Below, piece by piece: positions 35,768 to 40,633 of a stretch of DNA of 64,000 nt. The notes under the pieces are model-generated. The model was given only the letters and a program-made list of their open reading frames with translations, was not told where the DNA came from and made no database searches. Source of the stretch: Escherichia phage dhabil. Where the stretch lies: sequence record MN850621.1. The stretch is one strand, 5' to 3'. The position numbers and the translations under genes are program-made. Numbering within the stretch: the first letter of the stretch is position 1; each line of letters begins with the position of its first letter.

Positions 35768-36727
35768 TTATTTTTCGAAAGGACGAATTAAATGTTGATT
35801 ACGCTTAAACCGGTTGATGTAGTCACTTTCACCTAGGGTCCTATACATATTCACTACAGCTTGGTAGTTTTCCCAGGCATACTCACGGAACCAACCTGAA
35901 GTGATTGAGGTGCACACTTTCTCAAGAGCCATATAGAAACTTGTGGCCGCTGGGATATTAAAGTCATTAGGAACCTGCGAACGCTCTAGAGCAAGTACAC
36001 ATGCTTCTTCATAAACCCCTGCCAGTTTAATAGCTTCAGGCAAAGCTTCAAACTTCTCACGAGAGGTCATGACTTCAGAACCATCTTTCATATAAAAGGT
36101 ATACGCTGGGCGTCCGGCTAATGCCACAGCTTCATGAATAGAGTCGTGGTCTAATGTATAGATGGTATCATTAAAGAACGATGATTTGTTTACATCTAAT
36201 TTAGGATGAGAATAGCTCAACGTTTCTTTCTGACGTTGCAGCATGATTTCTTGGAGCTCTTCATTCAAGGTTACACCTTTATTACGAAGGTATTTGATGT
36301 GGGACATCGTCTTCAAAAAGAAAGGGTTGTTCTTCAAATAACGATGGCTCATTTTGATGGCCAGACAGATATCAGGCGTGGCCCAATAGAAACCCGTCAT
36401 CCGATCTTTCTTAATATGTGTTTTAGCATAATTCAGAAGGCGGTAGCTTGAGGTGAAATCCTCATCTTGGAGTTCGCCGGTAATTTCACGTACGTTAGTC
36501 AAGGCGCGGACGATATAAGCTTCAAAATAGGTTTCTTTACCGTTGTGCATGCATTTAAAAGCCTGGACGTCAGGGTTGTCTACGTGTACATGGGCGCCAA
36601 ACATCTGTGCTTTAAAATTATTCCATGACCCCTGGTCGGCAATAAAATCCCAATCAGAATTTTCGATATACTTACTTTCAATCAGACCAGCGTGGTGCAG
36701 TGCACGAGAACCAATAACTAGCATCAT
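35768..36727 (-). CDS. hypothetical protein
   Basis: 319 aa ORF, no motif recognised. Confidence 0.55.
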   Translation of the reverse strand: MMLVIGSRALHHAGLIESKYIENSDWDFIADQGSWNNFKAQMFGAHVHVDNPDVQAFKCMHNGKETYFEAYIVRALTNVREITGELQDEDFTSSYRLLNYAKTHIKKDRMTGFYWATPDICLAIKMSHRYLKNNPFFLKTMSHIKYLRNKGVTLNEELQEIMLQRQKETLSYSHPKLDVNKSSFFNDTIYTLDHDSIHEAVALAGRPAYTFYMKDGSEVMTSREKFEALPEAIKLAGVYEEACVLALERSQVPNDFNIPAATSFYMALEKVCTSITSGWFREYAWENYQAVVNMYRTLGESDYINRFKRNQHLIRPFEK

Positions 36728-36929
36728 AATATTTTCCTCATTAATAAAGACGAGTTACTTCATATTTACCCAGTTCAGATTTTTTTGCTTCAATACGCGT
36801 TGCGGCTAGATTAGCAGCCTCTAGTGAAGAAAATTGGACCACTTGGGAAGTATTCTGCCTTACGCCACCTTGTGGGTGAGTAACAAAAACAATAAGAACA
36901 TTATACATAATATTTTCCTCAGAGTAAAC

Positions 36930-37169
36930 TTAAATTTCAGCAACGTAATCGTTATGCAATTCCCACATATCATCAGAATTATTCTTAATGATAGGAATTA
37001 TCTCATTAGAGATTTCTTCGGCATAAGGGTCGTTGATACAGTGAGCGTCTTCAAAACGAACACCATAATCAGACTTCTTATAGGCAAAGCCATAAATCTT
37101 TTTAAACTTGGCACGACTAATGCGTACCGGCTCATCAGACTTATCAGACAGTGGAGAGTAATACCACAT
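36930..37169 (-). CDS. hypothetical protein
   Basis: 79 aa ORF. Confidence 0.4.
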   Translation of the reverse strand: MWYYSPLSDKSDEPVRISRAKFKKIYGFAYKKSDYGVRFEDAHCINDPYAEEISNEIIPIIKNNSDDMWELHNDYVAEI

Positions 37170-37213
37170 AATGTTCTCCTCATGTTTGTGTAAGGTAATA
37201 GTAACACAAGTTT

Positions 37214-37564
37214 TTAGAGTTGTACATCACTTCTGCAATATTCTAAAAATAATTTATCGCTGTCTACTGTATCCCAACGCCGCCAAGATGGATTCCAGAC
37301 CAGAGCGTTGTCACCACAATCATTGAGCTTAAAATGGTCGTAGTACATGGCTATGTGTCTAGTCTCGTCACCGGAGAACCCTAGTATAGGCTCGCCGTGG
37401 GTATGATACATATGATGGTGCATTGAGAGGTCGCACTTATAAAACATCTCACGTTTACCACGAACGAACAAGAAAGCTTGCCCATTCATATAGAATTCTT
37501 TATCTGTTTTCAAAAGATATTTGAATACTGAATCTTTGTGCATAAGTCCTCCTACCACATCCAT
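37214..37564 (-). CDS. hypothetical His-rich protein
   Basis: 116 aa; HHHMYHTH stretch. Confidence 0.45.
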   Translation of the reverse strand: MDVVGGLMHKDSVFKYLLKTDKEFYMNGQAFLFVRGKREMFYKCDLSMHHHMYHTHGEPILGFSGDETRHIAMYYDHFKLNDCGDNALVWNPSWRRWDTVDSDKLFLEYCRSDVQL

Positions 37565-37573
37565 GTGGCTAAA

Positions 37574-37801
37574 TTATTTTCCTAACGAAATACGAGTAGG
37601 TTTTTTACCAAAGTATTCTTCATAAGAACCATCTAAACGACCTGCTTTAGACCGGCAATATGAATCATACTTTTTATAATAGGCCATCTCAGTATTATAA
37701 CGTGGGTGTCTATCAGCCATAATAATACTTAACGGCCAACCTTTGGCATAATCGCGAAGACCGTTTATTTTATGAATGTATCTTTTCTTTAATTTTAGCA
37801 T
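37574..37801 (-). CDS. hypothetical basic protein
   Basis: 75 aa ORF. Confidence 0.4.
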   Translation of the reverse strand: MLKLKKRYIHKINGLRDYAKGWPLSIIMADRHPRYNTEMAYYKKYDSYCRSKAGRLDGSYEEYFGKKPTRISLGK

Positions 37802-38019
37802 GAGCTTGGGTACCAGATTTTACCATCGGAGCGAGCAACGAAGGTACGACCAGCTTCTTCACCATAACAAGAGCTATTCAGCCAATCTTCAAGACGAACT
37901 TCACCATCATAATCATCAAGCTCAACACCAAAATCCTGAGCAGAAGCCATATCTTTTACTTTCTTATACAGCGCAGCCAGTTCAAGAGCTGCTTTTTCTA
38001 ATTCATTAATATTAGACAT
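37795..38019 (-). CDS. small paralog family member 5 (C-terminal WYPSSC)
   Basis: 74 aa; ends in W-x-x-SS-C then TAA; member of five-gene tandem array. Confidence 0.55.
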   Translation of the reverse strand: MSNINELEKAALELAALYKKVKDMASAQDFGVELDDYDGEVRLEDWLNSSCYGEEAGRTFVARSDGKIWYPSSC

Positions 38020-38028
38020 TTTATCACC

Positions 38029-38241
38029 TTAGCAAGACATAGAGGATGTAAACCAGAAACCTTCACCATCTGGGATACCGTAATCATCACGGACCCATTC
38101 GTAATCATCATATTCCGGATTCTTTGGGGAAATGTATTGTCCACGGCCGGAAACATGGAACTCTTCACCTGTTTCGTCAGCCACGGACTGACCTTTACGT
38201 ACTAATTCACGGATTTGTTTTTCAATTTCATCAATAGTCAT
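38029..38241 (-). CDS. small paralog family member 4 (C-terminal WFTSSMSC)
   Basis: 70 aa; GRGQYISP loop and C-terminal W-x-x-SS-x-x-C. Confidence 0.55.
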   Translation of the reverse strand: MTIDEIEKQIRELVRKGQSVADETGEEFHVSGRGQYISPKNPEYDDYEWVRDDYGIPDGEGFWFTSSMSC

Positions 38242-38250
38242 TTTATTACC

Positions 38251-38448
38251 TTAGCATTCGTAAGAGGAGGACACCCAAGAGGTACCACTAATAGTAATAC
38301 AACCGTTATAAAGCGTTATATGTCGTTCTAAGTCACGAGCACCATCAATATAGATATCAGCTTCTTCGCGTTCTTCTTTACAAATTTGAATAACGTTTTC
38401 AATTGCCGCAGCGGCAGTTCGGATTGCACAATCTAATTCACGAGACAT
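38251..38448 (-). CDS. small paralog family member 3 (C-terminal WVSSSYEC)
   Basis: 65 aa; C-terminal WVSSSYEC then TAAGG. Confidence 0.55.
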   Translation of the reverse strand: MSRELDCAIRTAAAAIENVIQICKEEREEADIYIDGARDLERHITLYNGCITISGTSWVSSSYEC

Positions 38449-38457
38449 AATATTTCC

Positions 38458-38739
38458 TTAACATTCAGAAGAAGAGGACACCCAACCGCCAGTTGCGAGG
38501 TCAGTTGTATAGTCATGAGTATTAACAATAGCCCATTCAGGATGACCATCTTCTTCCCAATGGGCAAGGTCAGCTTTCAAGGCGCCAGGAGAATAATAGT
38601 CACCGCCCATACCGCGAGCAGGGTATATATTAAAATGAGTCTCATATTTGTCTGCAATTTCCTCGGCACGACGAATAGCTTCATGAATTTCTTTTACTGC
38701 GGCCAGAAGCTCTGGATGGTTATGATTATCATTCATCAT
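38458..38739 (-). CDS. small paralog family member 2 (C-terminal WVSSSSEC)
   Basis: 93 aa; EEIADKY…GGDYYSPG…WVSSSSEC. Confidence 0.6.
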   Translation of the reverse strand: MMNDNHNHPELLAAVKEIHEAIRRAEEIADKYETHFNIYPARGMGGDYYSPGALKADLAHWEEDGHPEWAIVNTHDYTTDLATGGWVSSSSEC

Positions 38740-38748
38740 AGCTTTTCC

Positions 38749-39039
38749 TTAGCACATTGCCGAAGAGGAGACCCAGGCACCAACTGTAACGACGCCATTT
38801 TCAACTTCACCGCCATTGTTTTCAATTTCATCTTTAAACCACTGGGAGCATTCATAACCAACAGGGTAGTAGGTACGTCCTGAGCCATAATCACCTGTTC
38901 CGAATTGAATACCGTACTTATCGGCAATAGCTTCACATTTGGATTCGATGATATCTACTTTACCGAGCAGGGCATAGATAGCTTTTTCTGCAGATTTCTC
39001 GTCGTTGTATTCAGGGATTTCAATTTCAATTTTATTCAT
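38749..39039 (-). CDS. small paralog family member 1 (C-terminal WVSSSAMC)
   Basis: 96 aa; EAIADKY…GSGRTYYPVG…WVSSSAMC. Confidence 0.6.
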   Translation of the reverse strand: MNKIEIEIPEYNDEKSAEKAIYALLGKVDIIESKCEAIADKYGIQFGTGDYGSGRTYYPVGYECSQWFKDEIENNGGEVENGVVTVGAWVSSSAMC

Positions 39040-39389
39040 GATTTACATTCCTTAATAAAGGTTTCAAGGTCATTACGTTTGGTTTGTTTTACATACTCAT
39101 TATAATTAGCCATCTCTAAAGCATATCTCTTACGGATGGGAGCATTCAAAGCATTTGTATGGCAAATATCATACACGAGAGGGATAAAATAAGCCACGAC
39201 AGCCGGAGCAATTATCATATAGAAACCCATCTCAATAGGCATGACTCCTTCGATTGCAGCCATAACTGTGGTCATTACCAGACCAACCAGACCGCCGAGC
39301 ATACCTGTGACAATTCCCGTGAATAAGGAAATAGCAATATCATATTCAGCCAATTGATAAACATGCGATGAAAGACTAGGCCGTTCCAT
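39036..39389 (-). CDS. hypothetical membrane protein
   Basis: Several hydrophobic helices; start set to internal ATG (MERPSL); uncertain. Confidence 0.4.
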   Translation of the reverse strand: MERPSLSSHVYQLAEYDIAISLFTGIVTGMLGGLVGLVMTTVMAAIEGVMPIEMGFYMIIAPAVVAYFIPLVYDICHTNALNAPIRKRYALEMANYNEYVKQTKRNDLETFIKECKS

Positions 39390-39918
39390 TTTGGACCTCT
39401 TTAGCGTATTCACGGCATTCAGCAATAAAGCGATTAAGCTTCCGTTGTTGTTTACGACTTTCTAATGTGTACTCAGCAGTTAAGATACCAAGCTCGGCTT
39501 TATCATAATTTTTAATATCAGTGTAAGATGGTCGACGGTCGACCATTCCAAATACATCACCATTTTCTAAAGCCACATAGCATACTAAATGGTAATCATC
39601 GTCTGCCATATTAAGAAGCACGCAATCATTGCTCTCATTTAAAGAATATACTGAATAACGTAGTCCAGCGAATTCCACTCGTTGAATAGCCAGATTTACG
39701 TCAATAATTTCCAAAGCATCTTCAAAAGAAAGGTCTTCAGCTAAAGCAAAAATAAAAGGTAATTTGGTAGTATCGCCACGGCTAGATGTTCTGCTTAAGA
39801 AATCGTTTGAATAGCCTAGGTCTTGGCGAATTCTATAAAGAACTGAATTGGTTTCATGGGAAAGACCACTATTTTTAAACCAATCAATATTTGATATAAG
39901 GTTATCATATAAACTCAT
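39376..39918 (-). CDS. hypothetical protein
   Basis: 180 aa ORF with strong SD GGAGGAGAGGAG. Confidence 0.5.
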   Translation of the reverse strand: MSLYDNLISNIDWFKNSGLSHETNSVLYRIRQDLGYSNDFLSRTSSRGDTTKLPFIFALAEDLSFEDALEIIDVNLAIQRVEFAGLRYSVYSLNESNDCVLLNMADDDYHLVCYVALENGDVFGMVDRRPSYTDIKNYDKAELGILTAEYTLESRKQQRKLNRFIAECREYAKEVQNGTA

Positions 39919-40589: not shown

Positions 40590-40633
40590 TAATCCATGAG
40601 GACATTATACCCTGTCCTCTGAGGGTTGTAAAC
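40590..40633 (-). promoter_or_regulatory. early sigma70-type promoter
   Basis: Minus GTTTAC, 18 nt, TATAAT; -10 inside palindrome GGACA…TGTCC. Confidence 0.6.

Follow-up and report, generated by a model that had tools for sequence, protein, structure and literature searches.

Five small phage genes with a shared C-terminal tail, best described as half of a phage-wide module with a putative nucleotidyltransferase

Escherichia phage dhabil (sequence record MN850621.1) carries, within the 64,000-nucleotide stretch of DNA analysed here, hereafter the window, five adjacent small genes on the minus strand, g1 to g5 (37795–39039), whose products all end in the same short tail built from a tryptophan, two serines and a terminal cysteine. 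The description that fits the region best is that of the small-protein half of a module, so far undescribed and spread across phages, in which proteins bearing this tail tag are paired with a nucleotidyltransferase (NTase). Comparison of gene neighbourhoods across phage genomes makes it very probable that the small genes and a gene encoding the domains DUF7277 and DUF7275 form a conserved, phage-specific two-gene module. As to what the tail does, the reading favoured here, at a little short of an even chance, is that it is a portable tag recognised by the enzyme, one of its invariant serines being O-nucleotidylated or given a nucleotide-derived group.

The association between the two families came to light in two unrelated metagenomic contexts, where a family member lay just upstream of a protein of approximately 300 aa with DUF7277 and DUF7275. 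Membership of the small family is taken in this work to mean a protein C-terminus of the form W-x-x-S-S-(0–3 residues)-C, which all five products of g1–g5 possess. Of 41 IMG/VR loci reached through the small family, 39 are followed on the same strand by the enzyme gene and the other two lie on contigs that end at that point; the same linkage is present in seven metagenome loci, in the window and in SP18. Approached through the enzyme, 71 of 80 IMG/VR loci show an upstream match to the family hidden Markov model (HMM), and four more have an upstream open reading frame (ORF) recognised by the tail motif alone. The loci were sampled by conserved peptide patterns and many derive from related T4-like phages, a bias that is partly corrected by clustering into lineages; so counted, the arrangement is kept by 42 of the 46 enzyme lineages defined at 60% identity and by 50 of the 54 defined at 70%. 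The number of small genes per locus varies from none (8 loci) through one (30), two (40), three (21) and four (11) to five (27), and individual loci hold up to six tail-bearing ORFs. When all ORF families encoded on the same strand up to 3.5 kb from the enzyme gene are compared, the small family occurs in 37 of the 46 lineages, with 299 of its 301 copies upstream, the next most frequent neighbour, a DnaB-like helicase, reaching 8 of 46. A third conserved gene was not found in the enzyme neighbourhoods of the 46 lineages, which otherwise contain replication or early genes of a generic kind, including those for the DnaB-like helicase, RecA/UvsX, NAMPT, a metallophosphatase and a gp31-like protein.

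Hosts of the T4-like phages that carry the module are Escherichia, Klebsiella, Enterobacter, Serratia, Aeromonas and Acinetobacter; the module also occurs in ~100-kb Pseudomonas phages, among them phiPsa347 with four tail proteins, in ~150-kb coliphages and in jumbo phages of 350–390 kb such as Salmonella phage Munch. The enzyme family as a whole comprises 2,277 clusters and 734 phage records, and a pattern-limited scan of 185,579 species genomes for the enzyme returned five matches, on contigs of metagenome-assembled genomes only. A small metagenomic lineage has no upstream tail genes (loci L112, L113, L115 and L123), and one of its enzyme copies (L115:5788–6711) is split into ORFs of 55 and 209 aa, which may reflect decay of the enzyme in the absence of its partners.

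Most other phages have the small genes directly next to the enzyme gene. In the window, the enzyme gene (35768–36727, minus strand, 319 aa, phrog_2141) follows g5 on its strand at a distance of about 1 kb, and four unrelated small ORFs of 75, 116, 79 and 55 aa (36741–37801, minus strand), none of them tail-bearing, part it from the array. The intervening ORFs, seen in Dhakavirus and Gaprivervirus, belong to phrog_7065, phrog_9796 and phrog_3723, plus the 55-aa ORF, and the 75-aa product is strongly basic (pI 9.9), in contrast to the acidic array. The separation would suit an explanation in which the small proteins are independent effectors, that is, binders acting in host takeover or anti-defence, for example as nucleic-acid mimics. 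Their tail would then work for the small proteins themselves, in metal binding, disulfide-linked oligomerisation or attachment to a host protein, and the link with the enzyme would be no more than a shared operon. Their small size and acidity (isoelectric point (pI) 4.3–4.8), the early-type transcription unit, the hyperplastic region between nudE and the tRNA genes and the faster evolution of g2 and g4, where the ratio of non-synonymous to synonymous substitution rates (dN/dS) reaches 0.5, also favour it. This explanation is nevertheless unlikely, given that the same-strand, same-order linkage across the 42 lineages, jumbo and ~100-kb Pseudomonas phages included, exceeds operon drift, that no other neighbour is conserved and that both halves are absent together from T4.

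The tail itself is the second line of evidence. As first annotated, the array consists of five adjacent minus-strand genes of 65–96 aa sharing a Cys-ending tail, and both observations hold: all five ORFs are present and the tail occurs in each of them and nowhere else in the six frames of the window. A search for W..SS.{0,3}C followed by a stop gives five matches in the 64 kb, every one in g1–g5, whereas shuffled windows average 0.11 matches and never exceed 2. The first gene, g1 (38749–39039, 96 aa), encodes an acidic core-family protein (pI 4.3; phrog_899, E 1.1e-22) ending in AWVSSSAMC, and g2 (38458–38739, 93 aa) a core-family protein ending in GWVSSSSEC (phrog_899, E 1.3e-18). The product of g3 (38251–38448, 65 aa) has a divergent body assigned to phrog_4882 (E 2.4e-36) and the tail SWVSSSYEC, whereas that of g4 (38029–38241, 70 aa) is again a core-family protein, with the tail FWFTSSMSC (phrog_899, E 3.4e-14). 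The last gene, g5 (37795–38019, 74 aa), encodes a remote member (phrog_899, E 3.7e-10) from a subfamily of 27 sequences, with the zero-spacer tail IWYPSSC. It carries a second, internal copy of the motif, W46-L-N-S-S-C51 (37867–37884, minus strand), 23 residues ahead of the terminal WYPSSC; this copy is kept in all g5-type orthologues shown, the double-tail form being conserved across genera, and has the look of an internal duplication, or of a site that cleavage would make C-terminal.

Beyond the window, an exhaustive profile search recovered at least 336 clusters of the small family at 50% identity, and nearly all matches reach the last residue. Across 52 diverse members, the only invariant columns besides the initiator Met are the Trp, the two Ser and the terminal Cys; the body often, though not always, includes a helix ending in A-E-x-I-A-D-E, an F-x-F strand and a Y-G-M-G-G-T-Y-Y-P hairpin. 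The distance from Trp to the serine pair is constant, and the spacing from the serine pair to Cys is two residues in 193 of 241 distinct tails, zero in 39, three in 8 and one in a single tail. The terminal position of the Cys is not absolute, as some ORFs have one extra residue after it (..SSSICW, ..SSTQECN and ..SSYNCS; loci L089–L091, L116 and L128, e.g. L089:4595–5035). In Salmonella phage Munch, the 189-aa gp114 (L140:3177–3743), encoded between the sole tail protein and the enzyme, ends in ..LEDTIC and has no W..SS.

Such a short conserved 3′ end could in principle reflect the nucleic acid rather than the protein, with the tail peptide incidental to elements for translational coupling, masking of Shine–Dalgarno sequences or recombination between repeats. 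The junctions lend this some colour: at all four, a Shine–Dalgarno sequence for the next gene accompanies the stop, as the initial annotation had noted, the TAA stop overlaps this TAAGGA or TAAGGT sequence, the 9-nt spacers are identical, and pyrimidine-rich TCCTCT Ser codons stand 10–20 nt ahead of TAAGGA. In the 241 distinct tails, however, the two invariant serines are written with all six Ser codons (TCN and AGY), the Cys with both TGC and TGT, and all three stops occur; within the array itself, g5 uses AGC TCA against the TCC TCT of its neighbours, and the tail is retained in phages whose next gene is not a family member. The nucleotide-level explanation is thus effectively refuted. Because the invariant serines use all six codons, the tail is, on codon usage, selected as a peptide and not as RNA, which settles at the protein level the choice between protein and RNA conservation that had been left to be checked.

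The tail also sits on differing bodies. Once it is removed, no homology to the core family is detectable for proteins of the g3 type, for a 145-aa type or for about 20 singletons, and the occurrence of one tail on such bodies points to tag-like behaviour. By eye, many of the divergent bodies retain a helix followed by A-[DE]-x-x-x-h-x-h. A search of the longer tail-bearing proteins for known domains found none.

The five genes had been called clearly related, a description that stands for part of the array. Clear homology (phrog_899) joins g1, g2 and g4, and the EAIADKY and G-x-G-x-x-YY-P similarity between g1 and g2 is real; the body of g5 without its tail aligns with the core family at an hhalign probability of 76%, a weak relationship, and that of g3 at 1%, its similarity to the other array members being statistically undetectable outside the tail. 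In one search with the family HMM, the profile included g3 and g5 themselves, and their detection there is circular. Comparison with orthologues from related phages gives a dN/dS of about 0.1 for g1, g3 and g5 and of 0.2–0.5 for g2 and g4, with an overall span of 0.02–0.5 (individual ranges 0.2–0.48 for g2, 0.02–0.2 for g3 and 0.09–0.5 for g4); on these ratios, g1–g5 are genuine translated genes under purifying selection, g2 and g4 evolving faster. Each of the five paralogue types is kept as orthologues in Dhakavirus, Gaprivervirus, Mosigvirus and Klebsiella and Enterobacter phages. As these orthologues persist across several genera under purifying selection, the types are, by this comparison, old and individually maintained, and the earlier suggestion of tandem diversification, taken as a recent local expansion, finds no support.

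The partner protein offers the clearest lead to biochemistry. In Pfam, the window enzyme matches DUF7277 at 96.5 bits (E 1.5e-27) and DUF7275 at 262.8 bits (E 2.4e-78), against a cut-off of 27, and its dN/dS of 0.05–0.07 indicates strong constraint. Among 47 diverse homologues, G6, S7, D25, D27 and E69 are invariant and constitute the hG[GS]...DxD...E signature of Pol-beta nucleotidyltransferases; the invariant residues of the C-terminal domain include K125, H128, D193-H-D195, H198, C243 and C272, and a stretch K125-x-x-H128-R-x-x-K is conserved that may or may not correspond to motif IV of DUF1814. The AlphaFold2 (AF2) model, with a predicted local distance difference test (pLDDT) score of 91.7, has MenT1 as its best PDB match (score 9.6), followed by ANT(2″) (8.3), TglT/MenT3 (8.1), MenT4 (7.5), TM1012 (7.2), a JHP933-type NTase (7.1) and LnuA (6.8). 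From this modelled fold, the enzyme can confidently be placed among the Pol-beta nucleotidyltransferases, structurally near the MenT/AbiEii toxins and the antibiotic NTases. Pfam at E ≤ 0.01 reports DUF7275 and DUF7277 only, with no match to the AbiEii/DUF1814 profile, and there is no PADLOC or NCBIfam match; as the DUF1814 model is not matched, the enzyme is not a member of that family at the sequence level. In the actinophage homologues (phrog_6944; ~30% identity over the C-terminal domain), the GS and DxD motifs are retained and the central strands are missing, and no tail-bearing genes lie nearby. The enzyme has been deposited under inconsistent names ('prohead assembly scaffold protein', 'putative antibiotic resistance protein', 'HNS-dependent protein'), and a single record calls it 'putative nucleotidyltransferase'; the names other than nucleotidyltransferase are probably wrong.

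Structural proximity to MenT toxins raises the possibility that the small proteins are antitoxin-like, binding and gating a MenT/AbiEii-type enzyme that acts on tRNA, other RNA or a nucleotide, with the tail as a pseudo-substrate plug. MenT1, TglT/MenT3 and MenT4 are among the best structural matches, and the small proteins, of 65–96 aa, encoded upstream and starting with a long helix, recall MenA1, a helix-rich protein of 68 aa encoded upstream of MenT1, whose active sites it blocks with its long central helix (PMC10435456). Acidic small proteins could moreover fill an RNA-binding groove, and some enzyme homologues occur without small proteins. Against this, the C-terminus of MenA1 is dispensable (PMC10435456), yet it is precisely the conserved part of the phage proteins, and we regard the antitoxin-like explanation, the chief competitor of the tag reading, as rather improbable. 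The genomic surroundings of the enzyme give a weak hint of an RNA-end-related role that would fit a MenT-like fold: RNA ligase genes lie near it in a few loci, and the neighbours of this kind, RNA ligases and tRNAs, are found at L004:10055–10369, L137:2288–2947, L140:1–82, L138:5653–7780 and L075:4615–5567. Only 7 of 42 diverse loci have tRNA genes within ±6 kb, and an association with tRNA or RNA-repair genes was too weak to be kept as a feature of the module.

The tag reading, to which we return, draws on the invariance of the tail alone, the divergence of the bodies, the presence of several paralogues per enzyme and the precedent of MdcG/CitX-type enzymes. We infer from the sequence comparisons that the small proteins interact with the enzyme. 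In the mechanism proposed, the Trp and the terminal Cys, through its free carboxylate, its thiol or both, would dock the tail on the enzyme, whose GS...DxD...E site would move a group derived from a nucleoside triphosphate onto the hydroxyl of one invariant Ser; the one to six acidic small proteins of each phage, with their different bodies, would be parallel substrates produced early. Two further observations count in its favour, namely that the actinophage enzymes without the central strands are also those without tail-bearing neighbours, and that the stretch between the array and the enzyme gene has no terminator-like site. For the suggestion in the initial annotation of a recognition or modification site at the Cys-ending tail, the near-obligate linkage to a gene for a protein with a predicted NTase fold provides strong, if indirect, support. 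A more specific version, in which the phage NTase modifies the Ser-Ser of a C-terminal tag on small acidic effector or carrier proteins and thereby creates their active form, is advanced tentatively, and would, if true, add a novel pathway for modifying proteins, widely distributed among the large phages that infect Proteobacteria.

The serines and cysteine of the tail also invite a comparison with ribosomally synthesised and post-translationally modified peptides (RiPPs), since the Ser-Ser...Cys-COOH layout resembles the C-termini of lanthipeptides and of peptides with S-aminovinyl-cysteine (AviCys). The small genes would then encode precursors, the enzyme activating a tail Ser for elimination and the product being a lanthionine- or AviCys-type crosslink or a released peptide; the occurrence of several precursor-like genes beside one enzyme is in keeping with this. 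The predicted structure of g1 is nevertheless a well-folded domain (AF2, pLDDT 91) rather than a leader plus core, no dehydratase, cyclase, decarboxylase, protease or exporter is conserved near the enzyme, and a Cys directly after the serine pair would close an implausibly small ring, which together make a RiPP-like origin highly improbable.

The array lies between nudE and three tRNA genes, in a 2-kb region 99.9% identical to Escherichia phage CLB_P2 (OL770107), a JS98-like Dhakavirus of the Straboviridae, in which each of g1–g5 is labelled hypothetical. It is preceded by a gene (39036–39425, minus strand) for a predicted membrane protein of phrog_2330 with weak holin-like matches, which overlaps the start codon of g1 by 4 nt (ATGA); the overlap suggests translational coupling into the array. 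Further upstream, a consensus scan places early-type promoter-like sites, among them a sigma-70-like one, TTTACA-17-TATAAT, at 40604–40632 on the minus strand, and the consensus scan found no minus-strand terminator-like site from ~41.5 kb to the enzyme gene. This layout suggests that the array and the enzyme gene are co-transcribed early in infection. A role in host takeover or anti-defence, as first proposed, is plausible, being compatible with the early-type unit and the acidic small proteins.

Scans of g1–g5 against Pfam, NCBIfam, PADLOC and PHROGs yielded functionless PHROGs only (phrog_899 and phrog_4882), and the small proteins have no match among PDB folds, resemble MenA1 and other solved antitoxins in neither sequence nor fold, and show no detected homology to CitD or MdcC (no Pfam match). 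The whole T4 genome contains no small-family member, no ORF ending in the tail and no partner enzyme, which together with these scans bears out the view that this is not a characterised T4 family. As a candidate homologue, T4 tk.1 (L144:10850–11050) was set aside: its E-value of 0.02 is non-significant, it has neither the tail nor a partner enzyme, and the similarity is probably due to chance. Literature searches for phrog_899, DUF7275/DUF7277, the motif and phage NTases, whose coverage of the literature is incomplete, returned nothing relevant, and no description of the small family, its linkage to the enzyme or the tail motif was found in them.

Both families have thus far been annotated only as hypothetical or under wrong names, and their linkage merges two unknowns into a single module with a tag of 6–8 residues. 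Modification of the tag, if it occurs, would be a novel chemistry by which viruses modify proteins, and tag and writer would make a portable pair; should the small proteins turn out instead to gate an enzyme of the MenT kind, that toxin family would have its first phage-borne representative, controlled in a novel way. Either outcome bears on early host takeover by RB69-, JS98- and many jumbo-type phages, as opposed to T4, which is without the module.

Among catalogued families, the window proteins are bona fide members of PHROGs 899, 4882 and 2141 and of Pfam DUF7277 and DUF7275, entries that carry no function. Among characterised systems, HepT–MntA, a type VII toxin–antitoxin pair, shows that a Pol-beta-fold NTase can AMPylate a neighbouring partner near its C-terminal region. 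In that pair, the acceptor is a Tyr of the HEPN RNase toxin, the NTase itself being the small antitoxin, whereas the phage small proteins have no HEPN domain according to Pfam. From MenA1–MenT1 and AbiEi–AbiEii, the phage module differs in that its enzyme is not a member at the sequence level and has a larger, very highly conserved C-terminal domain, in that one to six small partners, invariant at their extreme C-terminus, take the place of a single one, and in that it is found only in phages, as far as the pattern-limited genome scan shows. The closest precedent for an NTase-class enzyme modifying a Ser of a small protein is provided by CitD–CitX and MdcC–MdcG, pairs of a carrier protein and a phosphoribosyl-dephospho-CoA transferase: MdcG, a CitX-type enzyme related to NTases, loads a prosthetic group through a phosphodiester onto a Ser of MdcC, an acidic carrier of ~10 kDa (PMC5534430). 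The phage module has no precursor synthase of the CitG/MdcB type and no third conserved gene, and its candidate site would lie in a C-terminal tail ending in Cys, in contrast to the loop that is modified in the carriers.

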